The notes under the pieces: model-generated | Told to the model about the DNA's origin: nothing | Databases searched by the model: none | Seen by the model: only the letters and a program-made list of their open reading frames with translations | Made by a program: the position numbers and the translations under genes | Shown here: positions 1 to 27,898 of the stretch, piece after piece | Numbering within the stretch: position 1 is the first letter of the stretch | Layout: each line of letters begins with the position of its first letter | Origin: an uncultured virus (IMG/VR IMGVR_UViG_3300045995_000154) | Taxonomy: Duplodnaviria; Heunggongvirae; Uroviricota; Caudoviricetes | DNA: 56,687 nt | Reading direction: 5' to 3' (one strand) | Virus record (IMG/VR): IMGVR_UViG_3300045995_000154

Positions 1-3000
1 CTACGTCTGTAGCTGTGGCTGTTGTGAATGTAGCTGTACTTGGAGTTACGTTACCAATTACTGTACCGTTAATGCTTGCTGCTGTGAAGCTGTCTGCTGT
101 TACGCTTGTGAACGAACCAGCTGCCCTAGTTGTACCACCAATTACTGTACCGTCAATTGTACCACCAGTAACTGTTACGTTGCTGCTGGACAAGTTAGTA
201 ATAGTACCTGTTGTAGCGCCTAATGTTGTTAAGCCTGTTACAGAACCGCTTGTAGCTTGTAAGTTAGCTGCTGTAGCTGTTGTGAAGCTACCTGTGCTGC
301 CGCTTACTGGAGTACCAGTAATTGCGCCGCCAGTTACTTGTGCATTAGCTGTTGTTACGGAACCAGCACTTGCTGCACCGCTTACTGCCAACGATGTCAA
401 TGTACCAACGGATGTTACATTTGGCTGTGCTGCTGTAGTCAATGTACCACCAACTGTCGTAGCTACTACGTTACCAGTGAATGCGCTAGCTACTAGGTCC
501 TTATTAAAGTTCCATGTGTCTGTTGCAAATGTGTACAAGATTGTCGCTGCTGCTGGGCCGTCAACTGTAATACCAGCGCCGTCTGCTGCCGCACCAGTCA
601 ATGCACCTTGTGCAATTGTGATGTTCTTATCAGCTACGGAAACTGTTGTGCTGTTAACTGTTGTAACGCTACCACCAACTGTCAAGTTACCTTCAACAAT
701 TGCGTCACCGCCAACGTTCAAGTTCTTAACAATACCAACACCGCCAGCAACCTTCAATGCGCCTGTTACAGTGCTTGTAGATTGTGTTGTGTCTGTGATT
801 GTTACTACATTGCTTGCGCTTAATGTTGTGAAAGCACCTGTGCTTGCAACGTTTGCGCCGATTGGTGTGTTATCAATACCACCAGTAGCACTGAAGCTTG
901 CTGCTGTTACTGTTGTGAACGTACCAGCTGCTGGAGTTACACCACCGATAACTGTACCGTTTACAGTACCGCCAGTGATTGTAGCTGCGCTTGTGCTTAA
1001 GCTGTTAGCTGTAGTTGCACCTAATGTAGCTGCACCAGAAACTGCAACGCTTGTCAATGTACCAACGGATGTTACATTTGGCTGTGCTGCTGTAGTTAAT
1101 GTACCACCAACGTTAGTTGCATTCATTGTTGTGAATGTACCTGCTGCCGCTGTTGTGCCACCAATAACTGTACCGTCAATTGCGCCACCGCTAATTTGTG
1201 CATTAGCTGTTGTCAATACTGTTGCACCAACTGTGCTGCCGCTTACTGTTGTACCAGTAATCGAACCGCCTGTCAATGTAACTGCGCCAGATGTCAATGT
1301 CGAGAACGAACCAGTGCTACCAGAGATTGGTGTGCTTGTAATAGCACCGCCAGTTACTTGTGCATTGCTTGTTGTCAAGCTAGTTGCAGAAACTGTAACA
1401 CCGCTTAGTGCGCCGCCAGTTGCTTGTACGTTAGCTGTCACTAAGCTGTTTACAGAAGCTGCACCAGTTGTACTCAATGTTGTAAACGCACCAGTGCTTG
1501 GTGTTGTTGCACCAATTGTAGTAGCATCAATTGTACCGCCAGTAATAACTGCACCACCTGTTGTTACAGAAGTTGCTGTTACGTTACCGCCAGTAATTTG
1601 TGCATTACCAGAAGCAAAGTTAGTTACTGTACCGTTTGTAGCAGTCAATGTTGTCAAGCCAATTACAGAACCACCAGTTACTTGTGCATTGCTTGTTGTC
1701 AATACTGTTGCACCAACTGTTGCACCAGAGATTGGTGTACCAGTGATTGTGCCGCCAGTAATTGTAACGTTGCCGGATGCAAAGTTTGTAGAAGTTAAAT
1801 CTGTTAAACCAGTTACGGAACCGCTTGTAGCTGTAATTGGACCAGTTGTTACGCTTGTGAACGCACCAGTAGAACCGCTAATTGGCGTATTGCTGATGTT
1901 ACCACCAGTGATAATTGCGTTAGCTGTGGACAACGATGTAACTGCAACGGTAACACCACTTAACGAACCGCCAGTGATTTGTGCGTTGCCTGTAGTCATT
2001 ACAGTGAACGAACCAGTGCTGCCAGAGATTGGTGTGCTTGTAATAGCACCACCGGAAATCTGTGCATTGCCAGTTGTAACTAATGTCGAACTTACTGCGC
2101 TTAAACCAGTAGCAGAACCACCAGTAATTGCTGCGCCAGCAGTTGTCATTGTTGTGAAACTACCTGTGGAGCCGCTGATTGGAGTGTCAACAATTGTACC
2201 ACCAGTTACTGCTACGTTGCCAGAAGACAAGTTAGTTACAGTACCTGTTACTGCGCTCATTGTTGTTAACCCAGTTGCTTTGCCGCCAGTTACTTGCGCA
2301 TTAGCAGTAAACAATGTTGTAAATGTACCGTCTGCCGCTGTTGTCGCACCAATGACTGTACCGTCAATTGTACCACCAGTTACTGTTACGTTACCAGAAG
2401 ACAAGTTAGTTACTGAACCAGTAGTTGCCGCAAAGTTTGTGATACCAGAGATGTTACCACCAGTTGCTTGCAAGTTAGCTGTAGCAATAGCACCGTGAAT
2501 TACGCCACCAACCCATAGATCCTTAACAATGCCAGCGCCGCCAGCAGTGTTTAAGCTACCAGTGGTTGTGCTTGTTGCATCAACTGCGCTTGTGATGGTT
2601 ACATCAGGAGCAACAAAGTTCTTGTTTACGTTCCATGTGTCTGCTGTGCCATCATATGTGAATGTTGCACCAGAACCAGCTACTGTTAAACCAGAGCCGT
2701 CAGCAGTAGCATTGTCAATCGCACCAACTGCAAGAGTGATGTTGTTGTCTACTGTAGATAAGCTTGTGGAATTAACTGTTGTAGTTGTACCGTTAACTGT
2801 TAAGTTGCCACCAATGATAGTGTCGCCACCAACGTTTAAGTTCTTAGCAATACCAACACCACCTGCTGTAACAATAGCGCCAGTAGTTGTACTTGTGCTT
2901 TGTACATTAGATGTGAATGTTGTCGCACCATTGGAAGTCAATGTTGTGAAAGCACCAGTGGAAGGAACTGCATTACCAACTGGAGTATTATTGATACTGT

Positions 3001-5938
3001 CAGATGTGAAGCTGCTTGCGCTTAATGTTGTAAAAGAACCAGTGCTGCCAGAGATTGGTGTGTTAGTAATTGCACCACCAGTTACTTGTGCATTGCTTGT
3101 TGTCAATACTGTTGCACCAACTGTCGAACCGCTAACTGGAGTACCAGTAATTGCGCCGCCAGTTACTTGAGCGTTAGCTGTAGTTACGCTTGTGGCATTA
3201 ACTGTAACACCGCTTAATGCGCCGCCAGTTGCTTGTAAGTTACCAGTTGTTGCTGTTGTGAAGCTACCTGTATCACCAGAGATTGGTGTGTTAGTAATTG
3301 CACCACCAGAAATCTGTGCGTTAGCAGTAGTCACCAAAGCAGAAGCTACGGATGTCATGCCAGTAGCAGAACCACCAGTTGCTTGCAAGTTGCTTGTAGT
3401 TACCGAAGTACCTTGTACAGTGGAGCCGCTGATTGGTGTACCAGTAATGTTACCACCTGTAATTTGTGCGCTACCAGTTGTTACTGTTGTAGAGCTTACA
3501 TTGGTCATACCAGTGATATTACCGCTTGTAGCTGTTAATCCACCAGTGCTTACGCTTGTGAATGTACCTGCTGCCGCTGTTGTAGCGCCGATTGGAGTTG
3601 CGTTGATAGCACCGCCACCGATAACTGCATTGTTAGTTGTAACATTTGTAGAGCTAACATCTGTCATTCCAGTTACGGAACCGCCAGTAGCTTGTAAGTT
3701 ACCTGTGCTTACGCTTGTGGCAGAAACAGTAGAACCGCTTACTGGTGTACCATAAATGTTGCCACCGGTGATAACTGCATTGCCTGTGCTGAAGTTAGTA
3801 GCAGAAGCTGTAGTTGCACTCAATGTTGTCAAGCCAGTTACAGAACCGCTTGTAGCTGTTAAGCCACCAGTTGTAACGTTAGTAAACGAACCAGTAGAAC
3901 CGCTGATTGGTGTGTTCTGGATATCACCACCAGTAACTTGTGCGTTAGCTGTTGTCAATACTGTGAACGAACCAGTGCTGCCGCTTACTGGAGTACCGCT
4001 GATATTACCACCAGTAATCTGTGCGTTAGCTGTTGTGAAGCTTGTAGCACCTAATGCTACGCCAGTTACGGAACCGCCAGTGATCTGTGCGTTGCTAGTT
4101 GTTACGCTTGTAGCGTCAACTGTCATACCGCTGATTGCACCGCCAGTTAATGTAGCTGAACCAGATGTCAATGTCGAGAACGAACCAGTGCTACCAGAGA
4201 TTGGGCTGCTTGTGATTGTAACACCAGACATTGTACCACCAGTAACTACTGCGTTAGCTGTTGTTACGCTTGTACCTTGTACAGTAGAACCGCTAACTGG
4301 GGTACCGCTGATTGCACCGCCAGTTACTTGAGCGTTAGCTGTTGTAACGGAAGTTGCAGAAACGGTAACACCGCTTAATGCGCCGCCAGTTGCTTGTAAG
4401 TTACCAGTTGTTGCTGTTGTGAACGAACCAGTGCTGCCGCTTACTGGTGTGCTAGTGATAGCGCCGCCAGAGATTTGAGCGTTGCCAGTTGTTACTGTTG
4501 TCGAGCTCAATGCTGTCATGCCAGTAGCAGAACCACCTGTAGCTTGTAAGTTACTTGTAGCAATGTTACCGTGGATTGTGCCGCCTACCCATAAGTCAAT
4601 AGCAACACCTGCACCACCAGCAGTTGTCAAGTCACCAGTTGTTGGGCTTGTGCTGTTTGTTACACCACTTAATGCTAATGCAGGAGCAGTAACATCTTTA
4701 TTTAAATTCCATGTATCTGTTGCTTGAACATAAGTTAATGTTGCGTTTGCACCAGCTACAGTTAAACCACCGCCGTCAGCTTGTGCTGCGGTTGTAGCGT
4801 CTTTGGCTACAGTGATGTTTAAGTCAGCAACCGCTACTGTTGTAGAGTTAACTGTTGTAGTTGTACCTGCAACTGTTAAGTTACCACCAATAACAGTATC
4901 GCCACCAACGTTTAAGTTCTTAGCAATACCAACACCGCCAGCAATAACTACAGCGCCATTGTTTGTCAATGTGCTTTGTGTAGCGTCTGTGAATGTTGTT
5001 GCGCCGTTAGCTGCTAACGATGTGAACGCACCAGTGGAAGGAGTTGCATTACCAACTGGAGTATTGTTGATGCTGCTGAATGTAGCAGGACCGCCAGTTA
5101 CTGTTGTGAATGTTGCTGCTGCAGGAGTTGTACCACCAATAACTGTACCGTTTACAGTGCCACCGGAGATAGTAGCTGTAGCGATAGTTGCTGTAGTAGC
5201 ACTTACGTTACCGTTGAATGTAGGAGCAGTTACAGCACCAGTTACAGCTAATGTACCAGAAACTGTTTCGTTACCAGCAACCACTACTGTGGTGCCAGTT
5301 AAAACAACGTTACCTGTACCATTGCCGCTTAAGTTCAAGCTACTGTTTGTAGTAGCTGCGGAAATAGTTGTGTCAGAAACTGTTAAGTTACCGAACGAAG
5401 CGTTGTTTGCAACACCCATTGTACCAGTGTATGTATAACCAACAATGTAAACAACCTTACCGCTTAAAGCTGTAGGGACGTTAGTGTCAGCAAAGTTTAA
5501 AACACCTGCTTGGTAGTCAAATATCCAAGCGTCATTGTTACCGGAACCGTCCGGTGCTAACAATGTACCAGTGCTTTGTGGATTTGCTGCGCCAGCTGTG
5601 TCAGCGTATGCCTTAACAGTGTAGCTCGAACCAAACTCTGGAGGAATCCATTTTGCGATACTTGTCAACCAAGTACGTGTAGATGGAACTACTGTAGGAT
5701 CAGCCGCAGCCATAATAGATGCGGTACCAGTGCGAACATGTACTACACCAGATGTAGAACCTGGTGCTGTACTTGGGATGTCACCAGATTGGTTCCATAG
5801 TGTGTCGCCACGAACCAATAGCGGGCTCGCTATTGCTTCGTTACTAGGAGATTTATTTCCTGCAACGTCTGTTTTAGTGACGCCGTATACTAACTTCTTG
5901 TACAGGTCGTCAATTTTTTGTGTATCGCTAATTGCCAT
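1..5938 (-). CDS. Giant Thr/Gly/Ser/Ala-rich repeat virion fibre/adhesin-like protein (>1979 aa, truncated at left window edge; not in ORF track)
   Basis: ATG at 5938-5936 after AGGAG RBS; starts MAISDTQKIDDLYKKLVYGVTKTD. The same frame reads ...GNVTPSTATFTTATATDV at position 2, and the track lists no stop-terminated ORF in this frame. Built of TGNAQITGG/TPISGSTGSF-type repeats; lies downstream of other structural genes. Confidence 0.9.
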   Translation of the reverse strand, partial: MAISDTQKIDDLYKKLVYGVTKTDVAGNKSPSNEAIASPLLVRGDTLWNQSGDIPSTAPGSTSGVVHVRTGTASIMAAADPTVVPSTRTWLTSIAKWIPPEFGSSYTVKAYADTAGAANPQSTGTLLAPDGSGNNDAWIFDYQAGVLNFADTNVPTALSGKVVYIVGYTYTGTMGVANNASFGNLTVSDTTISAATTNSSLNLSGNGTGNVVLTGTTVVVAGNETVSGTLAVTGAVTAPTFNGNVSATTATIATATISGGTVNGTVIGGTTPAAATFTTVTGGPATFSSINNTPVGNATPSTGAFTSLAANGATTFTDATQSTLTNNGAVVIAGGVGIAKNLNVGGDTVIGGNLTVAGTTTTVNSTTVAVADLNITVAKDATTAAQADGGGLTVAGANATLTYVQATDTWNLNKDVTAPALALSGVTNSTSPTTGDLTTAGGAGVAIDLWVGGTIHGNIATSNLQATGGSATGMTALSSTTVTTGNAQISGGAITSTPVSGSTGSFTTATTGNLQATGGALSGVTVSATSVTTANAQVTGGAISGTPVSGSTVQGTSVTTANAVVTGGTMSGVTITSSPISGSTGSFSTLTSGSATLTGGAISGMTVDATSVTTSNAQITGGSVTGVALGATSFTTANAQITGGNISGTPVSGSTGSFTVLTTANAQVTGGDIQNTPISGSTGSFTNVTTGGLTATSGSVTGLTTLSATTASATNFSTGNAVITGGNIYGTPVSGSTVSATSVSTGNLQATGGSVTGMTDVSSTNVTTNNAVIGGGAINATPIGATTAAAGTFTSVSTGGLTATSGNITGMTNVSSTTVTTGSAQITGGNITGTPISGSTVQGTSVTTSNLQATGGSATGMTSVASALVTTANAQISGGAITNTPISGDTGSFTTATTGNLQATGGALSGVTVNATSVTTANAQVTGGAITGTPVSGSTVGATVLTTSNAQVTGGAITNTPISGSTGSFTTLSASSFTSDSINNTPVGNAVPSTGAFTTLTSNGATTFTSNVQSTSTTTGAIVTAGGVGIAKNLNVGGDTIIGGNLTVNGTTTTVNSTSLSTVDNNITLAVGAIDNATADGSGLTVAGSGATFTYDGTADTWNVNKNFVAPDVTITSAVDATSTTTGSLNTAGGAGIVKDLWVGGVIHGAIATANLQATGGNISGITNFAATTGSVTNLSSGNVTVTGGTIDGTVIGATTAADGTFTTLFTANAQVTGGKATGLTTMSAVTGTVTNLSSGNVAVTGGTIVDTPISGSTGSFTTMTTAGAAITGGSATGLSAVSSTLVTTGNAQISGGAITSTPISGSTGSFTVMTTGNAQITGGSLSGVTVAVTSLSTANAIITGGNISNTPISGSTGAFTSVTTGPITATSGSVTGLTDLTSTNFASGNVTITGGTITGTPISGATVGATVLTTSNAQVTGGSVIGLTTLTATNGTVTNFASGNAQITGGNVTATSVTTGGAVITGGTIDATTIGATTPSTGAFTTLSTTGAASVNSLVTANVQATGGALSGVTVSATSLTTSNAQVTGGAITSTPISGSTGSFSTLTSGAVTLTGGSITGTTVSGSTVGATVLTTANAQISGGAIDGTVIGGTTAAAGTFTTMNATNVGGTLTTAAQPNVTSVGTLTSVAVSGAATLGATTANSLSTSAATITGGTVNGTVIGGVTPAAGTFTTVTAASFSATGGIDNTPIGANVASTGAFTTLSASNVVTITDTTQSTSTVTGALKVAGGVGIVKNLNVGGDAIVEGNLTVGGSVTTVNSTTVSVADKNITIAQGALTGAAADGAGITVDGPAAATILYTFATDTWNFNKDLVASAFTGNVVATTVGGTLTTAAQPNVTSVGTLTSLAVSGAASAGSVTTANAQVTGGAITGTPVSGSTGSFTTATAANLQATSGSVTGLTTLGATTGTITNLSSSNVTVTGGTIDGTVIGGTTRAAGSFTSVTADSFTAASINGTVIGNVTPSTATFTTATATDV
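707..4936. repeat. Three ~2.1-kb super-repeat modules plus near-identical 44-60 bp internal repeats in the giant fibre gene
   Basis: GGVGI(A/V)KNLNVGG...TVNSTT...ADG...DTWN block anchored at 707, 2825 and 4901 (spacing 2118 and 2076 nt). Exact repeats at 3204-3262/4365-4423 (59 bp) and 1287-1330/4161-4204 (44 bp); 395-454/1052-1111 differ by 1 mismatch. Confidence 0.85.
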
Positions 5939-5961: not shown

Positions 5962-8832
5962 TTAGTGTGTCGCGTTCGGGAAGCTCAATGCTGTAATGCT
6001 ATCACCAGCTACTAATGCAAAACGTACAAAGATATAGTTATTAGTGCTGCTGTTACTAGATACTGTACCAAATGTTACTGTCTTGCTTTGTGTTACCACG
6101 GAACCTGTAGTAATAGCACCGCCCAATGCGCAACCTGTGCTGCCGTTACCGCCTGTACCAGTACCTGGAACACCTGCGCCGCCGTAAGCCACAGTAGCGT
6201 CGATCCAACCATTAGTTGGGGAAGCTGTTGTGTCTAAACTGCTGCCTGGCAATGCAACTTGCACGCCAGAGATCTTGCCTGTTACAGCAATGTCGAACTT
6301 AGATGTTGCATCACGAGTGATACGGAATGTAATGTATTGTGTACCAGTACGGCCAGTGCTTAAGTCTGGACCAACTGGGAAATAGCCTGTGCTGTAGTTT
6401 GTAGTATCGTTCTTGATAGTACCGCCTACAACTGTAGCTTCATATGTTGGTAATGCTGAGCTGCTTGTCCAGCTTGTGATGCTGCCTGTAGTTGGAGTAG
6501 CACCTGTAGCTAAACCACCAACACGTACTGCACTTGCTGCACCGCCGGAACCGAATGTACCAACAACGATGTTGTTTTCATTTGGTGTTGCTGTGCTTGC
6601 TGCATCAATACGTAATACGTTGCCGCCTGGTGTTAATGCCAAGCTGCCTGTTGCATAGCTGTTTGCTGCGCTTACTGTAGGACCTACGCTGCTTACGCCA
6701 GTGCTGTTAGCAATGGAAGCTGTTGTAGAAACTGTAGCGGAACCAGAAGCAACATACAAGTTACGTGCAGGAGGAACTGTTACGCCTGCTGCGGTGTATG
6801 TTACCGTAGCTGGTGCTTGGAACGAACCACCTGCAGTGCCAGTAAAGAAGCTGTCTGTAGCTGGGTATAAGTCACCAGTTAAACGATTTGCTGTACCGCT
6901 GTATGTCCAAACTGCACTGGAAGTGTAGTGAGGAACGCTTGAGCTGTATGCAACTACGTTAGAAGTCACTGCAAAGCTGCTTTGTGTAATAACTGGAGTA
7001 CCAGGAGCCGCAGAGTCATAGTACCACCCAACTGTATTTGTTGGTGTACCAGCTGTGTCTGTCAAGTATACATCGTTCCAACCGCCAGCAACTGTACCAG
7101 AAGCTGCCGCGTCAAAGGAGTACCAGAAGCCTAAAGCTTGAGCAGACTTGCTACCGTAGTCAGCGTTGTCACTGATAACTAAATCGCTGTATGTACCGTT
7201 GTTACCAGTGCCAGAAACGATTGTGTGGGAACCAGAGGAAGCGCCGTTCTTCATAACGGAAACTGTACCGGAATCACCAGGGCCAACGTCGTTAGCTGCG
7301 TTTGTTGCGTATGTGTTTACACGCTTGTATGCCGAAATAGTTGTACCACCAGCTACAGAACGGCCACCAGTACCACTGTTGTCTGTCTGTGTGAAGTTAG
7401 TCATACGTAAACCGCTGCTTAAGCTGCTTACTGTCAATGTGAACGGAGAACCAGGGAATGTAGATGGTTGAGTTGGAACCAACTTGCCTAATACTTCATT
7501 CAAACGGTCAACTGCATCAGTAATGTATGTACCTGTTGTCCATGTAGTAATAGCTGGGCTGTTGTCAACTAATGTTCCAGTAGTTGGGGTACCTAATTGG
7601 ATAACATTACCACGAACGCCGGCGCCTGCCAAGCTTTGTAAACTTAAATTACCTGCACCGTCAGATGTCATAACCGAAGCTGCAACACCGTCAACTTGAG
7701 GCATTGTCAATGCGCCGATTTTAACGGAGCCAGAGCTGCTTAAGTTTAAGTTGCCGCTTAGGGAAGAAATTGTGTTGTTAGCTACTTGTACATTTGCAAT
7801 GTTAGCTAAACCACCGATGTTTACATCCTTAGCAATACCAACACCACCCGCAGTTACGATAGAACCAGTAGTTGTGCTTGTGCTGTTTACGTTAGATGAG
7901 ACTGTAACGTCACCAGTTACGCCTAAAGTACCACCAACTGTAGCATTACCTGTTACTGTAGATGTACCGACTGTAGCTGTACCAGCAGTGCTGATATTAC
8001 CAGCAGTTGCGGTGCCTGTTACGCTTAAGCTTGTCAATGTGCCAACGGATGTTACATTTGGTTGTGCTGCTGTTTGCAACGTACCAGTAATGCCACCAGT
8101 GGATGTTAATGTTGTGAACGTACCTGCTGCTGCAACGTTTGCACCAATAACGGAACCGTTAATAGGTGTATTGCTAATTGCGCCGCCGGAAATTTGTGCA
8201 TTTGCAGTAGTTAATACTGTTGCTTGTACAGTAGAGCCAGAAACTGGTGTGCTTGTAATAGCGCCGCCACTGATCTGTGCATTGCCAGATGTTAAGTTTG
8301 TGATTGTTGCGTATGCAGACGAAATGTTACCGCTAAATGTACCACCAGCGCCAACGCTGAAGCTAGAAGCAGAAATCGAACCTGTAATGTCTACGTTGCC
8401 TGTTGCTGTTACATCGTGTGCTTTGATGTTGACAAAGCCAGAGTTGTTAACTCCTGTGACACCTTCGCCTGTGTCTGTTGTAGCAATTGCTACGAATGCG
8501 CTATCAGCTTCGCTCCATAACCAAGCTGTGTTAACTGCGCCGTAGCCAGTTAAGGTTGCTAAGTTACGATTGACTAAAATACCAATGTCATAGCCTGTTA
8601 AGCTACCAATGTATCCATTGTTGAACACAACCACCGGATCGTTAACGTAGGTATTAGTGGAATTAACAACGCTGGAGCCACCAGACACTGTTAAGTTACC
8701 AATAATACTAACGTTTGAGTTAAGGGTTAAGTTCGGGTTAAAGTTTGCACCAACAAGTGTTTGGTTGGCAATCTTTTGGTATGTAATTGTCGAATCAGTG
8801 ATCTGATTATTTTTAATTCTAGTTACGGCCAT
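5962..8832 (-). CDS. Virion structural/fibre protein, Thr/Gly/Ser-rich (956 aa)
   Basis: Long ORF with GGAG RBS and TAAATA late promoter upstream; shares TAAQPNVTSVGTL and GGVGIAK modules with the giant fibre. Confidence 0.8.
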   Translation of the reverse strand: MAVTRIKNNQITDSTITYQKIANQTLVGANFNPNLTLNSNVSIIGNLTVSGGSSVVNSTNTYVNDPVVVFNNGYIGSLTGYDIGILVNRNLATLTGYGAVNTAWLWSEADSAFVAIATTDTGEGVTGVNNSGFVNIKAHDVTATGNVDITGSISASSFSVGAGGTFSGNISSAYATITNLTSGNAQISGGAITSTPVSGSTVQATVLTTANAQISGGAISNTPINGSVIGANVAAAGTFTTLTSTGGITGTLQTAAQPNVTSVGTLTSLSVTGTATAGNISTAGTATVGTSTVTGNATVGGTLGVTGDVTVSSNVNSTSTTTGSIVTAGGVGIAKDVNIGGLANIANVQVANNTISSLSGNLNLSSSGSVKIGALTMPQVDGVAASVMTSDGAGNLSLQSLAGAGVRGNVIQLGTPTTGTLVDNSPAITTWTTGTYITDAVDRLNEVLGKLVPTQPSTFPGSPFTLTVSSLSSGLRMTNFTQTDNSGTGGRSVAGGTTISAYKRVNTYATNAANDVGPGDSGTVSVMKNGASSGSHTIVSGTGNNGTYSDLVISDNADYGSKSAQALGFWYSFDAAASGTVAGGWNDVYLTDTAGTPTNTVGWYYDSAAPGTPVITQSSFAVTSNVVAYSSSVPHYTSSAVWTYSGTANRLTGDLYPATDSFFTGTAGGSFQAPATVTYTAAGVTVPPARNLYVASGSATVSTTASIANSTGVSSVGPTVSAANSYATGSLALTPGGNVLRIDAASTATPNENNIVVGTFGSGGAASAVRVGGLATGATPTTGSITSWTSSSALPTYEATVVGGTIKNDTTNYSTGYFPVGPDLSTGRTGTQYITFRITRDATSKFDIAVTGKISGVQVALPGSSLDTTASPTNGWIDATVAYGGAGVPGTGTGGNGSTGCALGGAITTGSVVTQSKTVTFGTVSSNSSTNNYIFVRFALVAGDSITALSFPNATH

Positions 8833-8912: not shown

Positions 8913-10370
8913 TTAAAGTGGGAAGTAAAGTTTATACAATTTCAATGAGGCACCAGAAAGCGCCGATTGCGCTAATAGTCGTACATTACCAGCAGCTACA
9001 GTGGTAGTATAGGCAACCACATTTGCCGTACCTGCTGTTGCAGTCTGTGTAGCTGTAGACGTAATTCCGTCATGCATAACCATAACTTCAGACATATTTA
9101 AGTCGCCGTTAGCTGCTTGTGCCGTAACTGTATATTTTGCGGATCTATAATCAACCATTTTGAACTCGTCAATGATTACTGGGGAGGTGCCATAACTAAT
9201 AGTTGGGGAAACTACCGTAATCGAGTTTTGTTGCGCCATCTCTACCATTGGCGCCGTAGACAAGAACCGAACTTCTATAGTATCACCTGATTTTGGTACT
9301 TCGGTAAAGAGAATGTAGTTGGCAGAGTTAGGATCAACGGCATAAGCAATTCCTGGTTGTTGAACTGTACCGTTAATACTTACAATGATACTATCTTGTG
9401 TGGTGTGATAGTTTAGCAAGAATGTATCTTGCGAGTTGTTTCCGTAAAGTGACTGTGTAGACACTTCAGATTTCATACTGACCCAAGATGTACCGTTAAA
9501 ATACTCCGGAGCATTGGATTCTGTGTTATACCTAAATGATCCCAATGGGCCCGTAGGGCGTTGGGCTGTACTACCCACTGGTATAACTTGTGCTGCTGTA
9601 CTGTCAATAGTTAGCACAGCACCTGGTTGCGTGTGTATTGTTAAATTTCCATTAACATCGTATATGTTATTCGTATAAAGAGCGCCGCGTAGCTGTGCAT
9701 TTACAAACGGGGCATAAATGTTACCCGACGTTGTTAAACCAGTCAATGTACCAACGCTTGTTATGAATGGCTGTGCTGGTGTTAGCACATCACCGTTCAA
9801 AACGCCGTTCACTACTCCGTACATTACGCCATTTATATCGTTAGACAGAAAGTATCCAGCATTTAAATTGCCTACGTACATGTTTGGCGATGTAACTAGG
9901 CCAGTCCCGTTGCCTTGGATAGTTACATTACCGTTAGTTACACTTGTTGATAAAGTGGCACCATTGATGGTTAAGTCTTGCAAGAAGTTGCTGTTAGCCA
10001 ACCATACATTTGCGCTTGTCCAAGTCAACGTTCCACTACCATCCGTAGTAATAATGTCTAAATTGCTGCCGCCATTGATGTACACCGTACTCAAATCGCC
10101 TAGGGCGACCTCGCTGCCTACGTATAAGATACGATTGGCTTTGGCTGAAATAGTAGTACCGTTAATTAATACCCCACCGCCTTCGCTATCATCTGTTCCT
10201 ATTTTACCTTTGACAGTAAGAGTTTCGGTGACATTATCTGTGTTAATACCTACCTTAGACCCCGAAAAATCCAAATGCATTAACGTGGTTGTGTTGTTGA
10301 TAAAGGTCAGATTGCTTTGTCTGTCCAAGCTAGACGACAACATTTGTCCCGATATTCTTCCAATTGCCAT
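8913..10370 (-). CDS. Virion structural protein (fibre/baseplate-associated, 485 aa)
   Basis: MAIGRISGQML N-terminus; AQPFITSVGTL, GSTAQRP..G.FRYNT, VSINGTVQQPG and C-terminal YRSAKY motifs, typical of structural proteins of large T4-like phages; TAAATA at 10389-10394. Confidence 0.75.
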   Translation of the reverse strand: MAIGRISGQMLSSSLDRQSNLTFINNTTTLMHLDFSGSKVGINTDNVTETLTVKGKIGTDDSEGGGVLINGTTISAKANRILYVGSEVALGDLSTVYINGGSNLDIITTDGSGTLTWTSANVWLANSNFLQDLTINGATLSTSVTNGNVTIQGNGTGLVTSPNMYVGNLNAGYFLSNDINGVMYGVVNGVLNGDVLTPAQPFITSVGTLTGLTTSGNIYAPFVNAQLRGALYTNNIYDVNGNLTIHTQPGAVLTIDSTAAQVIPVGSTAQRPTGPLGSFRYNTESNAPEYFNGTSWVSMKSEVSTQSLYGNNSQDTFLLNYHTTQDSIIVSINGTVQQPGIAYAVDPNSANYILFTEVPKSGDTIEVRFLSTAPMVEMAQQNSITVVSPTISYGTSPVIIDEFKMVDYRSAKYTVTAQAANGDLNMSEVMVMHDGITSTATQTATAGTANVVAYTTTVAAGNVRLLAQSALSGASLKLYKLYFPL

Positions 10371-11954: not shown

Positions 11955-12425
11955 TTAGTAAGATGCTACGTTAGCGTAAGCTGATGTAGCTGGGGTGTTA
12001 ACCTTGTACATAAACTTGTTGCCTGCGAAGTCATAAACGTGCTTTGTGCTGATACGACGAGCGTAGAAAGGTGCGCTTGCTGTGTCGTAACAAGCAATGC
12101 TTGCTTCGCCTGCTGCTAATGCGCCAGCGGCTTTGTTTACAAGTTGAACTACAGTGATATGAGTACCTGCTGCTGCGGAATCATCAACTAAGAACTTTGC
12201 AGAACCCTTTTGATTGATAACGAAGCCGTGTGCAACTGCTACACCAGCCAATGTCTTGTATTGTACGTCTATTGTCTTAACGCCCTTGCCGTTAACTGTG
12301 TTACTAACGCCACCCGTACCACCAAAACCAGACGCTTGACCTTGGTCTGCGCTGACTAAGCCGTCTACTGTGCTGCCCAATGGTGCTGCTGGTGCTTGAT
12401 TTGCTACTTTAATACCTTTTGCCAT
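11955..12425 (-). CDS. Putative abundant late structural protein (156 aa; probable start 12425 rather than 12488)
   Basis: AAGGAAAATAAA-ATG start MAKGIKVANQ; own late promoter (12505-12510) and own terminator. Confidence 0.7.
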   Translation of the reverse strand: MAKGIKVANQAPAAPLGSTVDGLVSADQGQASGFGGTGGVSNTVNGKGVKTIDVQYKTLAGVAVAHGFVINQKGSAKFLVDDSAAAGTHITVVQLVNKAAGALAAGEASIACYDTASAPFYARRISTKHVYDFAGNKFMYKVNTPATSAYANVASY

Positions 12426-12504
12426 TTTATTTTCCTTTGTTGTGAGCGTTCTAAGCCCCGCGGAGTGGCTACTCGCACGAGCTCTCATTTAAGAGCGAAC
12501 CAGA

Positions 12505-12510
12505 TATTTA
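12505..12510 (-). promoter_or_regulatory. Late promoter TAAATA
   Basis: Upstream of the structured leader of the 11955-12425 gene. Confidence 0.6.
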
Positions 12511-12520
12511 GCCATTTATG

Positions 12521-12549
12521 TTTACAGAATAATGCATTTAATGTACACT
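12521..12549 (+). promoter_or_regulatory. Sigma70-type (early) promoter for tRNA
   Basis: TTTACA-N17-TACACT, ending 8 nt before tRNA position 1. Confidence 0.6.
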
Positions 12550-12557
12550 GGATCTAT

Positions 12558-12634
12558 GCGTTATTAGCTCATTTGGTTAGAGCGGCGACTTCTAAACTCG
12601 ACGGTGCTCGGTTCGAATCCGGGATAACGCACCA
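12558..12634 (+). tRNA. tRNA with CUA anticodon (putative amber suppressor), encoded CCA
   Basis: Acceptor GCGTTAT/ATAACGC + A73 + CCA; D arm GCTC-ATTTGGTTA-GAGC; G26; anticodon arm GCGAC-TT CTA AA-CTCGA (CTA at 12592-12594, only central CGA/TCG pairs); 5-nt variable loop; T arm CTCGG-TTCGAAT-CCGGG. Confidence 0.85.
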
Positions 12635-12643
12635 AAGGACACT

Positions 12644-13036
12644 ATGAAAATTGGATTTACTGGTTCGAGAGAAGGAATGAGTGATTCCCAAGTCGAAAGC
12701 TTTTACATGCTTCTCGGTAAAATGGGTATGACTGAGTTTCATCATGGTGATTGCATGGGCGCAGACGCTGAGGCACACATGATAGTCCAAAACTCGTTCC
12801 CAGATGCCAGAATCGTAGTTCACCCACCAAAAGCACAGATAGCTCGTGCATATTGTGTGGGTGATGAGTTAAGACCCCAATTTGATTACTTGACGCGGGA
12901 CAAGAACATCGTAGATGAATGCGAGTTTTTGTTTGCTGCCCCAATGCGCAGCGTAGAAGAAGTACGATCTGGTACTTGGGCTACTGTGCGCTATGCTAGG
13001 AAAAAGTTTCGTCTGCACGTCGTGCTGCCGAGATAA
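12644..13036 (+). CDS. SLOG-superfamily (Smf/DprA/YspA-like) nucleotide-binding protein
   Basis: KIGFTGSR, HHGDCMGAD, RDKNIVD and SGTWATVRYARK motifs; AAGGA RBS immediately after tRNA CCA. Confidence 0.7.
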   Translation: MKIGFTGSREGMSDSQVESFYMLLGKMGMTEFHHGDCMGADAEAHMIVQNSFPDARIVVHPPKAQIARAYCVGDELRPQFDYLTRDKNIVDECEFLFAAPMRSVEEVRSGTWATVRYARKKFRLHVVLPR

Positions 13037-13116
13037 ATATTTTTGTTACTCGGTTGTAGCAAATCTGGACTTTAATAAATTGTGCTTGTAGTCCAAAGCA
13101 GTAAAAAGGAAACATA

Positions 13117-14001
13117 ATGATGTACAATCAAAAGCTCGTTGCGAGCCTAAAAGCTAACGGCAAAATCTTACGTGAGTTCAAGGATACAGTTTATATCCCA
13201 TTCGGCTCAGAATACTCCATAGTTCTTAAAAATCTCAACACGGTCCGCGCCATCGTAAACATTACGCTTGACGGTACTGATGTCTGTCCTGGCGGCTTAG
13301 TGCTGCTCGCAGGACAAACCATTGATTTGGAACGCTGGATCAAGAACGGCAACCTCTCAGCAGGCAATAAGTTCAAATTCATTGAGCGCACTGCACAAAT
13401 CGAAGCACATAAGGGCATTGGTATCGAAGACGGTATCATCAACATCTCGTATCAGTTCGAACACCTACCAATTACATTCGCTGGAACTACGATTTGGGAC
13501 TACCAACAAAACGTGTGGAAGCAGCAACATACTGGCTTGCGCCAAGATGGAATGATTTTCAAGGGACTAGGTAACACCATCTCCCAAGTTAACAATGCAC
13601 AATGGAGCAGCGGTGACGCCACCTTCAGCAGCAATGAGCCAGTACCATTCAAGTCGAGCATTGCTCGCAGTGTACTTGCGTCTGGTGCTTCCGCATCCGT
13701 TACCAATGCATCGTTGAACAATGTGACTGCGCAAGCACAGAACGTAAGCTATAACGATGCTGGCATCACCGTTGCTGGTTCCAAGAGCGATCAAAAGTTT
13801 GCTACTGCAAGCTGGTTCCCAGTGCTGCCAGAAAAGCATTCCATTGTGCTTAAACTGTTGGGTGAAACCCCTGACAATAAGCCCGTGCTGCTACCAGTTA
13901 CAGTAAAAGCAAAGCCAAAGTGCACTACTTGCGGCAAAATGAACAAAGCGAATGCAAAATTTTGTACAGAATGCGGCACAGCACTTGAAATCTTCGCGTA
14001 A
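13117..14001 (+). CDS. Hypothetical protein with C-terminal zinc ribbon (CTTC...CTEC)
   Basis: 294-aa ORF, AAGGA RBS, TAAATA at 13034-13039; KCTTCGKMNKANAKFCTECGTAL. Confidence 0.8.
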   Translation: MMYNQKLVASLKANGKILREFKDTVYIPFGSEYSIVLKNLNTVRAIVNITLDGTDVCPGGLVLLAGQTIDLERWIKNGNLSAGNKFKFIERTAQIEAHKGIGIEDGIINISYQFEHLPITFAGTTIWDYQQNVWKQQHTGLRQDGMIFKGLGNTISQVNNAQWSSGDATFSSNEPVPFKSSIARSVLASGASASVTNASLNNVTAQAQNVSYNDAGITVAGSKSDQKFATASWFPVLPEKHSIVLKLLGETPDNKPVLLPVTVKAKPKCTTCGKMNKANAKFCTECGTALEIFA

Positions 14002-14018
14002 TTGTGCTAGACTAAATA
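13985..14018 (+). promoter_or_regulatory. Overlapping sigma70-type (TTGAAA-N17-TAGACT, extended -10 TG) and late (TAAATA) promoters
   Basis: TTGAAA 13985-13990, TG 14005-14006, TAGACT 14008-14013, TAAATA 14013-14018; both would initiate at or near ATG 14023. Confidence 0.55.
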
Positions 14019-14022
14019 CATA

Positions 14023-14130
14023 ATGCAATAGATTAACTATTACCCTTTTAGCCCGGACCAGAGCTTCCAATTAGAGGAAGAGTTCTCGTACGGGCTTTTT
14101 TACGATCATTTTAACCAAGGAGAAATCAAA
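14023..14130 (+). promoter_or_regulatory. Leaderless amber-interrupted leader ORF (MQ*INYYPFSPDQSFQLEEEFSYGLFYDHFNQGEIK), in frame with pth2-like gene
   Basis: ATG CAA TAG at 14023-14031, then 33 sense codons to ATG 14131 (offset 108 nt). Confidence 0.6.
14050..14101 (+). terminator. Terminator/attenuator-like hairpin within the pth2 leader
   Basis: AGCCCG(14050-55)/CGGGCT(14091-96) base stem, inner AGAGC/GTTCT and TTCC/GGAA pairings, T-run 14096-14101. Confidence 0.6.
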
Positions 14131-14505
14131 ATGAAATAGATAGACGGCAAACACTACTGCTACACCTTTATTCGCTCGGACTTACCAATCGAGACTCAAA
14201 TTGTGCAAGCTGCCCATTCCGCACAGGAATCCGGGCGGGATTTCAAGAATCGAAATCCAACAACAAACACGTTCCTAGTATTACTAGAGGCTAAGAACGA
14301 AGCAGCGTTGATGAAGGCCGGTGATCACTTGATCAACAACGGCATTAAATTTCACATGTTCCACGAGCCTGACTATGAGACAGGGTTTACAAGTCTTACG
14401 ACTGAACCTATCTACTACGAAGAGCAAAAGGAAATTTTCAAGAAGTTTAGTTTGTACAAATTCCGTGCAAGCAAAGCATACAGCATAATGGATAAAGGAG
14501 AATAA
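14131..14505 (+). CDS. pth2: Pth2-superfamily peptidyl-tRNA hydrolase-like protein with in-frame TAG at codon 3
   Basis: AAGGAGA RBS then ATG AAA TAG ATA GAC..., in frame with the 14203 ORF. Readthrough gives MK*IDGKHYCYTFIRSDLPIETQIVQAAHSAQE...LVLLEAKNEAAL...FHEPDYETGFTSLTTEP...FKKFSLY, i.e. the R.DL...Q..H, VL....E..L and EPD....T....P pattern of Pth2-like proteins. The track's GTG start would delete the RSDL strand. Confidence 0.8.
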
Positions 14506-14506
14506 A

Positions 14507-15079
14507 ATGGAAATGGTTTGTAAAGAAGTTGTGTTTCACTTCAACAAGAAGCACTTAGAAGACCCCACTATCCCAATGTGGGTTATCAAAACTAAAGGCA
14601 AAACATACTACGTCGAGCACGTTGAATGTAACATGCCTTGGAGCACTAAAGAGACTAAGGATAACCCGCACACCAAAGGTAGCTTTAAGTTCAAGGACTG
14701 TCACTTGACGATAGACGACAATAACGAGGCGACAATACGTTCTGCGACGAATCACGATAAGAGTGTTTTGCGCAATACCGCTAAGGGCATTACCCGTGTT
14801 ATTACTAAGTGGGGCAAGCAGTTGCAGGACTCGTTACAAAGCTTAGAGGTTAAGCATGGGCCCATAAAAACTATTGGTGGTGTTTGCACTACTACTTTCT
14901 ATGTAACTGATGTACACAAGAAGGATGAGTTGACTGCACTGTTGCTCACTGTAAAGGACTTGCGTGAGTTGATGCCGAACGAGCCGTACTATAAAATGTA
15001 TGATGAGGCGGTTACTAAGAACGTTGACTACTTTGACGAGGATGAGTATTATGATGAGTCTGACGATTCCGAAGAGTGA
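14507..15079 (+). CDS. Hypothetical phage protein with acidic tail
   Basis: 190-aa ORF, AAGGAG RBS overlapping the pth2 3' end. Confidence 0.8.
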   Translation: MEMVCKEVVFHFNKKHLEDPTIPMWVIKTKGKTYYVEHVECNMPWSTKETKDNPHTKGSFKFKDCHLTIDDNNEATIRSATNHDKSVLRNTAKGITRVITKWGKQLQDSLQSLEVKHGPIKTIGGVCTTTFYVTDVHKKDELTALLLTVKDLRELMPNEPYYKMYDEAVTKNVDYFDEDEYYDESDDSEE

Positions 15080-15212
15080 CGTAACCGCAGTGCTTAAATA
15101 TTTGCAAGAGAATAAGATTAAGCACTACCCGTTTACCAAATTAGTTAACGGGTACGAGATCACAGTAGAGAAGGATGAGCTTGTTAGCTTCTTACTTTTG
15201 AAGTATACTTAA
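15051..15212 (+). CDS. Small hypothetical protein (~53 aa)
   Basis: GAGG RBS before ATGATG at 15051; stop overlaps the convergent stop of the radical SAM gene. Confidence 0.5.
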   Translation: MMSLTIPKSDVTAVLKYLQENKIKHYPFTKLVNGYEITVEKDELVSFLLLKYT

Positions 15213-17116
15213 GATTGAATCCATATTATCTTTTTGTTCAGGGCAGTTTGGGCATTGGTCCACTGCCCCGTTCCTACATAGTGATGTGTAAAGCTTTTGT
15301 CTGGGTGTATAGGTAAGCGCCATTCGTCGTTGTCTTGCAACGCAAATACAAAGTCTGCATTCCACTCACCGTCATCAGTTATACTAAAGTTGTATGTTGC
15401 ATCGTAACGGTCAACCATCATAACGTCACCAAATGCGACTAAGTCTTCCTCGCGGTTGAAACGCAGTGTAATCTCAAAGCCACCAGCTACTCTATACATT
15501 AGCCGTAAAAATGCCCATATCTCATTCATTAGCGTGTCAGCAAAATTACCAAGATCAGTTTTGATAATGTTGAAGTCAAAATCATCTAGCGTAATATTGT
15601 CTGGCGGGTTAACTAACTTTAGCTTAGATAGTGTATAGTGCGAGTCAATGTCGCGGCGCTGAGTATTGAATAACACGCCGTTATTATAGCAAATGTCTAG
15701 CCAGATATTAAGCAGTTTCATTCTCACAAGCCTGTGCACTTTTGTATTACTCAGATCTTTAGAATACCACCATCCCCAAAACTTGTCGTCCCAATTGCTC
15801 ATGCTGTATTGCTCTCGGTTGAACTCAAAGTCTGTTCCTCTGCTATCGCCCAATGTCATGCCCGTGCTTATTAGATCCATGTAGTTACGGTTGTTCCACA
15901 GTAGTATCAAGCTGTCATTGTGTGCTTTGATGTTCTCATTAGGAAAGCCTACTATCCAGTTAACATGCACAGTAATGCCTGCGTTTTTACAATCGCGCAT
16001 GTTGGCATCTATCTCAGAGACCATAACCTTCTTCTTCATTAAGTCCAGTACTTTTTGTGAGCCGCTTTCAACGCCAAAGCTTAGATAGTGGGCGCCGCTG
16101 TCCTTTAAGTCTTTGAAGTAATCTGCATCCATACGCCCGTCACAGCGTACATACCCCATCCAACTAATATTGAACTGCTTCTCAATGGCGCCTTTTGCAA
16201 ACGTGCGCAACTCTTTGAGATTGCCGTTAACTAAGCTATCAATAAACCATACATAGGTGATACCGTAGTTCTTAATTTGGTCTTCTACTTCGTCCAATAT
16301 GCGGTTAGCTTGGCGGTCTCTAAACTTCCAGAACCAAGTCTCTGTGCAGAAGCTACACTTAGCCACACAGCCGCGGTTGATCTCTGCGCTAACGCCCGTA
16401 CCGTTTGTATACAAAGACAAATCAAATTCGCTGTAGTCAGGGAAAGGCAAGCTATCAATATCAACGCGGGAATCACTGTACGAGGTACCTAGTTTCTTAG
16501 TCTCTGGCAGTACGTTGTTTTCAAAGTTCTCAAGCATGTCTAACAGGATTTGCTCTCCCTCACCAACAACGTAGTAATCAATTTCGTCTATTGCCTCATA
16601 CTCTGGATTGTGGCAGGATGGTCCACCTGCAATAACTAGCACAAATGGCAAGCGTTTCTTAAGTTCACGTATCATCCAATACGTAGGTACTTTGTTTGTG
16701 TCGTAAATGCTAAATCCAACAACGGTAGGATTTGATGCCACAATCTTGTCTAAGTAAGCAGCATAATGAGGCAATGCCGCATCGTGCAATTTGTCTTGGT
16801 AGTTGCCATCGTTCCACCAATAGTAATTGATAGAGTCCCACGCTTTGTCTAAGCCATTAGATTTGAATGTGGTATACAAGTCTACGTTGAAATCAAAGGA
16901 TCTAGTAGCATAGCCTGCTTCTTTAGTTAAGGCAGATAACCTAGCGATGTTATAAGGTGCAAAGTATACGCCCCAACAACCCATCATAACTAGAGTAAGC
17001 CTAGTTTTCCTAGTAACGTTGTGTTCGTATATTACGGGATTTACGTTTTTACGTCGTGGTTTAGCAGTGTTTGCTACCATGGTCTCAGCTGACCATACGT
17101 GTTTGTCTTGTTCCAT
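15209..17116 (-). CDS. Cobalamin-binding-domain radical SAM enzyme (class B-like)
   Basis: VVGFSIY...IAGGP...VVGEGEQ B12-binding domain, LPFPDY, RGCVAKCSFC (CxxxCxxC), FGVESGSQKVLDLMKK, WIVGFPNE; TAAGTA 5 nt before ATG. Confidence 0.9.
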   Translation of the reverse strand: MEQDKHVWSAETMVANTAKPRRKNVNPVIYEHNVTRKTRLTLVMMGCWGVYFAPYNIARLSALTKEAGYATRSFDFNVDLYTTFKSNGLDKAWDSINYYWWNDGNYQDKLHDAALPHYAAYLDKIVASNPTVVGFSIYDTNKVPTYWMIRELKKRLPFVLVIAGGPSCHNPEYEAIDEIDYYVVGEGEQILLDMLENFENNVLPETKKLGTSYSDSRVDIDSLPFPDYSEFDLSLYTNGTGVSAEINRGCVAKCSFCTETWFWKFRDRQANRILDEVEDQIKNYGITYVWFIDSLVNGNLKELRTFAKGAIEKQFNISWMGYVRCDGRMDADYFKDLKDSGAHYLSFGVESGSQKVLDLMKKKVMVSEIDANMRDCKNAGITVHVNWIVGFPNENIKAHNDSLILLWNNRNYMDLISTGMTLGDSRGTDFEFNREQYSMSNWDDKFWGWWYSKDLSNTKVHRLVRMKLLNIWLDICYNNGVLFNTQRRDIDSHYTLSKLKLVNPPDNITLDDFDFNIIKTDLGNFADTLMNEIWAFLRLMYRVAGGFEITLRFNREEDLVAFGDVMMVDRYDATYNFSITDDGEWNADFVFALQDNDEWRLPIHPDKSFTHHYVGTGQWTNAQTALNKKIIWIQS

Positions 17117-27680: not shown

Positions 27681-27898
27681 CACTTAAAACCGAAGCAGAA
27701 GTCATAGGACTCTTAGAGTCCTATGAAAGGCAAGTTAAGGGCATGAAAAAAGAAGCACTGCGCATGTGTTGGTTAATGCGTGGAGGTATGAGCTACCCTG
27801 AGATACTTCAACTCGGAATGGTTGAGCGTGAACTAATCGGAGAGATAGCTAAGGAAAATATTGAAACTACTAAGGCAAGTAAGCTTCCGTATTTTTAA
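27659..27898 (+). CDS. gp51-like hub assembly protein; -1 frame open from slippery site T TTT TTC (alternative own ATG at 27743); not in ORF track
   Basis: -1 frame reads FFRKKLLTLKTEAEVIGLLESYERQVKGMKKEALRMCWLMRGGMSYPEILQLGMVERELIGEIAKENIETTKASKLPYF*. Confidence 0.7.
   Translation, partial: FFRKKLLTLKTEAEVIGLLESYERQVKGMKKEALRMCWLMRGGMSYPEILQLGMVERELIGEIAKENIETTKASKLPYF

Follow-up and report, generated by a model that had tools for sequence, protein, structure and literature searches.

A conserved amber codon at the start of a phage Pth2-like gene, probably read by a phage-encoded suppressor tRNA

According to our analysis, a small Pth2-like gene of an uncultured phage (Caudoviricetes; IMG/VR record IMGVR_UViG_3300045995_000154) carries an in-frame amber codon at its third position. 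We consider it quite probable that this codon is programmed, that it is read by the phage's own tRNA(CUA), and that the tRNA and the gene together form a conserved two-part module shared by many large phages, cultured ones among them. Ribosomes would start at ATG 14131 and reach the UAG at codon 3, where either RF1 would terminate translation or the phage tRNA(CUA) would insert an amino acid, yielding the full protein of 124 residues. The amount of the Pth2-fold protein would be gated by, and would scale with, the expression and charging of the suppressor tRNA. A stop so close to the start would occupy a site tolerating any residue, and its abortive product would be nearly cost-free. Suppression of the leader TAG by tRNA(CUA) in vivo is suggested by comparison of homologs, namely by the conservation of the stop, its match to the anticodon of the neighbouring tRNA and the purifying selection downstream. 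The features are collected in Table 1; all positions refer to the window, i.e., the whole stretch of 56,687 nucleotides that was analyzed. The whole genome is represented by one contig of 134,351 bases, from which the window differs at two bases, 7572 (A/T) and 16377 (T/C).

Table 1. Features of the tRNA(CUA) and Pth2-like gene region (window coordinates)
Feature	Position	Strand	Basis
Sigma-70-like promoter match, TTTACA-17-TACACT, just upstream of the tRNA	12521..12549	+	9/12 matches
tRNA, anticodon CUA (candidate amber suppressor)	12558..12634	+	ARAGORN; Rfam RF00005, 51.5 bits, E 3.4e-8
Long hairpin followed by a T run, terminator-like	14050..14101	+	Fold of 14002-14145 (hairpin = positions 49-95)
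Shine-Dalgarno sequence AAGGAGA	14117..14123	+	Read from sequence; 7-nt gap to ATG 14131
ATG start and codon 2 (AAA) of the Pth2-like gene	14131..14136	+	Sequence; ATG 1-5 codons before the stop in 64/98 unique homologs
In-frame amber TAG, codon 3, conserved; next codon ATA	14137..14139	+	Sequence and homolog comparison
Remaining Pth2-like coding sequence, residues 4-124, TAA stop 14503-14505	14140..14505	+	Sequence, profiles, model

The interrupted gene and its product

Mechanical ORF calling places the start of the gene at GTG 14203, which is codon 25, and yields a product of 100 amino acids; reading the TAG as sense gives 124 residues. The ATG, the AAA, the TAG and the following ATA (14140-14142) share one frame with this GTG and with the terminal TAA. 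In that frame, as read in the window, ATG, GTG and TTG are all absent between the TAG and codon 25, and the sequence preceding GTG 14203 holds no Shine-Dalgarno motif. Translation through the TAG revealed no other lesion in the Pth2-like reading frame. The initial annotation had put the gene start at ATG 14131, had assigned the good ribosome-binding site to it, and had located the N-terminal strand of the protein between the TAG and the GTG, and our results agree on each point. The spacing of the AAGGAGA motif suits an ATG that is in frame with the Pth2-like ORF, and strand 1 of the structural model comprises residues 8-15. Since the Pfam PTH2 alignment covers residues 13-109 of the window protein and that of phrog_1866 covers residues 3-108, both beginning upstream of codon 25, the homologous protein starts at the ATG and not at the GTG. 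The accompanying claim that the full-length protein requires the TAG to be read as sense also stands, as a product started at the GTG would lose strand 1 together with R15 and D17.

The terminator-like hairpin lies between the upstream gene (13117-14001), whose end it forms, and the Pth2-like gene; it was absent from the output of a simple terminator scan. It was the sole element to stand out in the fold of the leader (14002-14145), which was otherwise ordinary (z -1.13), and an Rfam search of positions 12400-14300 at E <= 1 returned the tRNA and two weak matches elsewhere, with no leader RNA family.

The product is predicted to adopt the Pth2 fold. With the AlphaFold model (pLDDT 92.6) as the query, the 10 best PDB chains found by Foldseek were all Pth2/Bit1 entries (TM 0.63-0.75, E 2e-5 to 5e-4), the best matches being 1q7s, 2zv3, 1wn2, 3erj, and 1xty at 13-18% identity. 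Pfam PTH2 (PF01981) scored 19.5 bits on the window protein, against a gathering cut-off of 23 (E 1.2e-3), and it matched 37 of 69 family members at E <= 0.01 (best 3.6e-7). Residues Y11, R15, and D17 are at least 90% conserved among the 69 sequences. The family profile finds Pth2 chains weakly (best E 4e-4) and aligns the R-x-D-L and Q-x-x-H motifs and the Asp of “DAG.” Catalysis by Pth2 involves the Asp of the DAG motif and the Lys of the GK loop. In the phage family, the invariant D81 aligns with the D of “KDAG,” and the position of the two-residue “GK” loop is a gap in the family profile. Because the Pth2 fold is combined here with weak profile matches and a gap at the GK loop, we treat these proteins as a Pth2-fold family of its own, with 3963 representative clusters at E <= 1e-3. 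The family shares with archaeal and eukaryotic Pth2/Bit1 the fold, the R-x-D-L ... Q-x-x-H-A motif and the Asp aligned with that of “DAG”; it differs in that the window protein falls below the Pfam cut-off, in its low identity, in the absence of the GK loop, and in that its function is a predicted one. Searches with PADLOC gave only a marginal match to PDC-M24B (E 0.006), and NCBIfam gave none. We take the protein to be a putative hydrolase, most likely one that cleaves an ester in a tRNA-linked substrate connected with what the suppressor does.

The next gene (14507-15079, plus strand) starts 2 nt past the stop of the Pth2-like gene; its homologs immediately follow the family gene at 12 or more other loci, and it had no matches in Pfam, NCBIfam, or PHROG. 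The module is adjoined by a gene for a 635-aa radical SAM protein with a B12-binding domain (15209-17116, minus strand). Elsewhere in the window, a full-length Polynucleobacter-1 RNA (RF01718) was found at 28404-28551 on the minus strand (89.4 bits against a cut-off of 37, E 8.8e-18), within a 1-kb stretch lacking long ORFs (27681-28721). At the left end, an ORF of 1979 aa on the minus strand (2-5938) overlaps long plus-strand ORFs at 3-2498, 2529-3170, 3192-3755, 3756-4331, and 4803-5438; neither this ORF nor the plus-strand ORF of 827 aa had a match in PHROGs.

Conservation of the leader stop among homologs

A protein search returned 18 homologs, several of which have Q at codon 3. One of them, P0010, is the product of the gene at locus L033, the DNA of which has TAG at this position, so the gene caller of the protein collection had presumably printed TAG as Q. 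The comparison was made on DNA loci from viral and metagenome collections and from cultured phages, anchored on a conserved Arg; 128 loci were examined, and the 126 that could be anchored represent 98 unique genes. An ATG followed by zero to four codons and a TAG was present in 63 of the 98, and the same arrangement with TGA in one; another gene had a TAG with no nearby ATG, 33 had no leader stop, and a leader TAA occurred in none. The leader TAG is retained among homologs at 30-56% protein identity. Three of the 33 genes without a leader stop (L026, L059, and L066) have an in-frame TAG in mid-gene, beyond which the homology continues, and one leader-TAG gene (L001) contains a second in-frame TAG. 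Taken together, the class counts and the mid-gene TAGs give an in-frame TAG or TGA in at least 68 of the 98 unique genes, at four different positions. The conservation of the leader TAG is, on this comparison, far beyond chance.

The leader itself is variable. ATG and TAG are separated by 0, 1, 2, 3, or 4 codons in 2, 39, 7, 9, and 6 of the 63 leader-TAG genes, respectively, the last codon before the TAG is any of 23 different codons, and in two lineages the TAG directly follows the ATG, so that no peptide is encoded. A Shine-Dalgarno-like motif precedes the ATG in 44 of the 63. The base after the stop is A in 47 genes, G in 13, C in 3, and T in none. A purine after a stop codon is a context that favors suppression, and the purine after the leader TAG would fit such contexts. 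The terminal stops of the leader-class genes are TAA (29), TGA (29), and TAG (3), an avoidance of TAG that is expected if these genes are translated while an amber suppressor is active.

Downstream of the stop, dN/dS was 0.105 over the 17 codons up to codon 24 and 0.144 over the next 50 codons, as estimated from 31 pairs at 70-97% nucleotide identity that are not mutually independent. Judged by these ratios, the sequence after the TAG is under purifying selection and the stop is not a lesion. The initial annotation had regarded the TAG as a functional, selected feature and had suggested aligning the homologous 5' ends at the nucleotide level and estimating dN/dS after the TAG. Both comparisons bear it out, the alignment by the number of genes that keep the leader TAG and dN/dS by the lack of relaxed selection.

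The nearest relative, P0002 (95% protein identity), has Lys in place of the stop, which indicates that at least one close lineage can do without the stop; its differences from the window protein lie mostly within the first 13 residues. P0002 and P0003 (91% identity) are known as proteins only, and a single-protein scan of viral contigs did not find the DNA of close relatives. Nor did the viral contigs contain a close relative of P0015, which begins with “MLWV” and whose W possibly stands for TGA. Contigs of three other freshwater runs (X6, X7, and X8) break on either side of the leader region, between 14063 and 14198, which may reflect strain variation there; the contig of another run (X5, possibly the source sample) spans the region unchanged and is identical across the TAG site. 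The Lys codon of the closest relative (AAR, one base from TAG) and the three broken contigs could be taken to mean that the TAG arose recently by nonsense mutation, results from misassembly or marks a pseudogene in decay. We find this scarcely credible against the retention of the stop in so many divergent genes, the low dN/dS after it, the lack of any other lesion in the frame, and the identical X5 contig.

The composition of the leader bears also on the possibility that ATG-x-TAG is a small upstream ORF after which ribosomes re-initiate at the next codon (ATA in the window) without any suppression, tRNA(CUA) serving other targets. Some Ile and Val codons can act as weak starts, and the codon after the TAG is one of these (ATT, ATA, ATC, GTT, or GTA) in 47 of the 63 genes; furthermore, GTG follows the stop in the TGA lineage, and phages XacN1 and Xoo-sp13 have an ATG four codons past the leader TAG. 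However, none of the 63 genes has ATG, GTG, or TTG adjoining the TAG, and in the remaining 16 the next codon is a non-start codon (AAC, AAT, CAC, ACT, GGC, GGT, CTA, or GAA). Re-initiation would also leave unexplained the bias of the leader stops (63 TAG, one TGA, no TAA), the mid-gene TAGs, and the linkage of a cognate tRNA on the same strand (see below). We therefore regard it as quite improbable and retain readthrough by the phage tRNA as the preferred explanation.

The suppressor tRNA, its linkage to the gene and the genetic code

The tRNA(CUA) gene lies on the same strand as the Pth2-like gene, 1.5 kb upstream, and is the only tRNA called by ARAGORN in the window; in the 134-kb genome there were two calls, this one and a doubtful one of 98 nt. 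The Rfam tRNA model aligns with it end to end, over all 71 model positions. Its anticodon loop is UU-CUA-AA, position 73 is A, and the CCA end is encoded. Only three pairs of the anticodon stem are of the Watson-Crick type, and they lie between two non-standard pairs, G-A and C-C. By its cloverleaf and anticodon, the molecule is a candidate suppressor. The promoter match upstream of the tRNA is weak, as the region contains six such sites where 5.0 are expected in shuffled sequence. A weak match to the Rfam freshwater-2 RNA (30.6 bits against a cut-off of 49.9, E 0.029) lies at 12423-12496, just upstream of the tRNA on the opposite strand.

Comparison with the nearest neighbors among 227 other phage tRNAs gave no consistent answer as to the isotype. 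The labels “tRNA-Pyl” and “SeC” assigned by ARAGORN derive from the anticodon alone; pyrrolysine and selenocysteine decoding depends on a special tRNA shape and dedicated factors (PylS, SelB, SECIS). Initiator tRNAs are distinguished by an unpaired 1-72 end and three G-C pairs in the anticodon stem. The use of the TAG as a start codon by such a tRNA was considered and rejected, given that the 1-72 end is paired, the anticodon stem has no run of three G-C pairs, and the Shine-Dalgarno spacing suits the ATG.

Linkage of the gene to a tRNA(CUA) is recurrent. Within the flanks searched, which extended to 3-4 kb at most per locus, a tRNA(CUA) was found at 33 of the 63 leader-TAG genes, always on the strand of the gene, and at 30 it was not found. 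Suppressor tRNAs, again always on the strand of the gene, flank 15 of the 33 stop-free genes, often 15-170 nt after the gene, in addition to one UUA tRNA, an ochre suppressor type, located about 1.24 kb upstream of a stop-free family member (L160). Four leader-TAG contigs were searched over their whole length; a tRNA(CUA) was present in three, at distances of 7.5, about 39, and about 41 kb, and one of the three contigs is a complete genome of 345 kb. The fourth (L107, the contig of L001) is an 84-kb fragment, 22% complete, with 41 tRNAs and no CUA among them. Two UCA tRNAs occur on its minus strand (6621-6692 and 9033-9103), though its Pth2-like gene has TAG stops.

The sole TGA gene (L018, contig of 172.5 kb) is preceded at 200 nt by a tRNA(UCA), and a CUA tRNA is lacking. 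Covariation of stop and anticodon rests on this single lineage, and the case is not clean, since a GTG directly after the TGA could start the gene without readthrough. In a reverse test, a CUA anticodon-loop pattern retrieved at least 116 loci; among the matches listed, 14 loci had a real tRNA(CUA) and 102 did not, and a family gene on the same strand within 5 kb was found in 3 of the 14 and in none of the 102 (Fisher p about 0.0014 on the matches listed).

A tRNA(CUA) together with rare TAG terminators might also indicate that TAG is read as Gln throughout the genome (code 15), the leader TAG being one of many recoded codons, and the Q printed at codon 3 of several homologs, including P0010, would fit this. 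However, every long ORF is unchanged when TAG is read as Q, and 96% of the genome is covered under code 11 by 122 crudely called ORFs. The stops of the 122 ORFs are TAA (94), TGA (23), and TAG (5); readthrough of the five that still terminate at TAG would add only 1-28 residues. A scan of the whole 134 kb for a Shine-Dalgarno motif, an ATG, at most four codons, a TAG, and a long open frame revealed one convincing gene, the Pth2-like one. In the related loci, the gain in ORF cover from reading TAG as sense was no greater than that from reading TGA as sense. The many TAG-interrupted genes and the low code-11 coding density typical of code 15 were not found in this genome. We consider genome-wide recoding extremely unlikely: the genome otherwise uses the standard code, and the Pth2-like gene is the only evident in-genome target of tRNA(CUA) in this phage.

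The arrangement stands apart from that of the Lak and crAss-like phages, in which code 15 with TAG read as Gln and phage suppressor tRNAs have been described (10.1101/2021.08.26.457843). As far as the available part of that preprint allows comparison, both have a phage tRNA(CUA), in-frame TAG codons in genes and TAG-depleted terminators, and in both the affected genes presumably rely on the phage tRNA for their translation. The present genome differs in that it uses the standard code and only one gene is affected (elsewhere two, the Pth2-like gene and an HD-motif neighbor); moreover, the stop lies within a few codons of the start, the gated gene has to do with tRNA and is neither a late nor a lysis gene, and it is physically linked to the tRNA gene.

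Cultured phages, possible regulation and significance

The same leader is found in cultured phages: MAQ# (# = TAG) in Pectobacterium phage CBB and Cronobacter phage GAP32, MTH# in Erwinia phage pEa_SNUABM_19, ML# in Ralstonia phage RsoM2USA and Salmonella phage Arash, and MT# in Acinetobacter phage ME3. In all six records examined, current annotation truncates, splits or omits the gene. A tRNA(CUA) was confirmed in CBB (about 3.7 kb downstream of the gene), RsoM2USA (about 13 kb away), ME3 (about 430 nt upstream; the record gives the anticodon as CTA), and Arash (about 1 kb downstream), and a match to the CUA tRNA pattern only was found in GAP32 and pEa_SNUABM_19. The tRNA of Arash (4310-4384 of locus L115, 49176-49247 of the record) is annotated as tRNA-Phe, and ARAGORN reads its anticodon as CUA. 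Similarly, a “tRNA-Phe(aaa)” at L035 contains the CTCTAAAA loop and closely resembles the CUA tRNA of L032.

For the jumbo phage XacN1, which has tRNA(CUA) genes, the authors found no targets by reading through 18 terminal amber codons, according to the available part of their report (PMC5852040). ORF364 of this phage has a Pth2-like domain at its end, and before its annotated start we found a Shine-Dalgarno motif and ATG AAG TAG; this leader TAG is a probable target of the XacN1 CUA suppressors. Insofar as that source can be compared, our phage resembles XacN1 in being a standard-code phage with a tRNA(CUA); the difference is that a probable target is now indicated before the ORF364 start, a place that the study did not examine.

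In many of these phages, the Pth2-like gene is followed by a gene for a protein of ~175 residues with an invariant H-D-C-G-K-P motif (loci L114, L116-L119, L113, L121, L018, L021, L055, L144, L150, L153, and L159); in XacN1 ORF364 and Xoo-sp13_327 the two are fused. In the protein collection, one protein of 303 residues carries PF01981. The HDCGKP gene has a leader TAG in L055, L153, L159, RsoM2USA, XacN1, and Xoo-sp13, and an internal TAG in CBB, GAP32, pEa_SNUABM_19, and L144. The model of the HDCGKP protein (pLDDT 97.7) is similar to a portion of a class II tRNA-processing nucleotidyltransferase and to HD phosphohydrolases; TM scores against 3wfo-3wfs were 0.56-0.61 on the query, with all Foldseek E-values above 0.05. 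The gene is absent from the genome of the window. With the exception of this HD-motif partner, clustering of neighboring genes reflected only synteny among related phages.

Stop-free genes, too, lie beside the tRNA, and the target or partner of the Pth2-like protein is therefore probably the suppressor tRNA or what it produces. Two roles are conceivable for the protein, that of a companion synthesized when needed and that of a brake exerting negative feedback on the suppressor; an RF2-like feedback that senses suppressor activity is possible. More specifically, and as a tentative proposal that we hold to be rather doubtful, the tRNA and the stop-gated hydrolase may form a self-regulating circuit, in which the enzyme would cleave the aminoacyl- or peptidyl-tRNA ester of the suppressor or clear the products of suppression. 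Suppression would then be held at a set point, because synthesis of the enzyme needs the same tRNA at the leader stop.

The initial annotation had proposed another loop, in which the ATG-AAA-TAG minigene sheds fMet-Lys-tRNA, a Pth substrate, and readthrough makes the Pth2-like antidote, again with RF2-like feedback. The bar minigenes of lambda offer a precedent, as very short ORFs terminate poorly and shed peptidyl-tRNA; the leader in the window consists of a strong Shine-Dalgarno motif, two codons, and a stop, exactly one codon separates ATG and TAG in most leader-TAG genes (39/63), and the product has the Pth2 fold. Nevertheless, the spacer varies from none to four codons with many different last codons, in contrast to a bar minigene of fixed length, the two ATG-TAG lineages would yield no peptidyl-tRNA, and the TAG lies in mid-gene in three genes. 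Stop-free genes still adjoin tRNA(CUA). In addition, the loop ignores the linked suppressor tRNA and includes no step by which a load of peptidyl-tRNA would raise readthrough. For these reasons we regard it as unlikely, and it fails in the form in which it was put forward. The readthrough part of the initial annotation holds, with the phage tRNA(CUA) as the agent that it had missed. In view of the variable leader, the mid-gene TAGs and the stop-free genes beside tRNA(CUA), the conserved feature is the cognate stop with its tRNA, and not a dipeptidyl-tRNA.

Bar minigenes are free-standing, and their toxicity is seen in hosts defective in Pth (rap = host Pth). The phage leader shares with them the strong Shine-Dalgarno motif, the two-codon ORF with its stop, and a thematic link to peptidyl-tRNA hydrolase; unlike them, the mini-ORF is in frame with a hydrolase-like gene, its length is not conserved, and its stop is cognate to a phage tRNA. 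The autoregulation of RF2 (prfB) involves a programmed frameshift at an early in-frame UGA. An early in-frame stop is conserved in 64 of the 98 unique genes of the phage family. The likeness, which concerns the reading of the gene only, also includes the translation-related product and a yield set by competition between termination and recoding; the differences are readthrough by a dedicated tRNA instead of a +1 frameshift and a product that is not a release factor.

Our literature search, with most subscription journals and all supplements outside its scope, returned no paper in which a Pth2-like gene is connected with a suppressor tRNA and a leader stop. The available parts of the recoding preprint (10.1101/2021.08.26.457843) and of a 2026 survey of jumbo phages make no mention of such a hydrolase.

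Suppressor tRNAs of standard-code phages had no known targets before, as the XacN1 authors stated outright in the available part of their report, and the Pth2-like gene is probably such a target. A widespread family appears to have repeatedly acquired a stop codon cognate to the phage tRNA, at the leader and at three other positions. The module would be a compact, transferable circuit coupling a tRNA-directed enzyme to the activity of the suppressor, and would represent a novel viral use of the genetic code to gate or adjust a gene. If suppression is indeed held at a set point, the module would amount to a homeostat of the RF2 kind, made up of a tRNA and a hydrolase and carried as a cassette by many standard-code phages, some of which would add an amber-gated HD-motif enzyme acting on tRNA ends, and this would explain the “orphan” suppressor tRNAs of jumbo phages.
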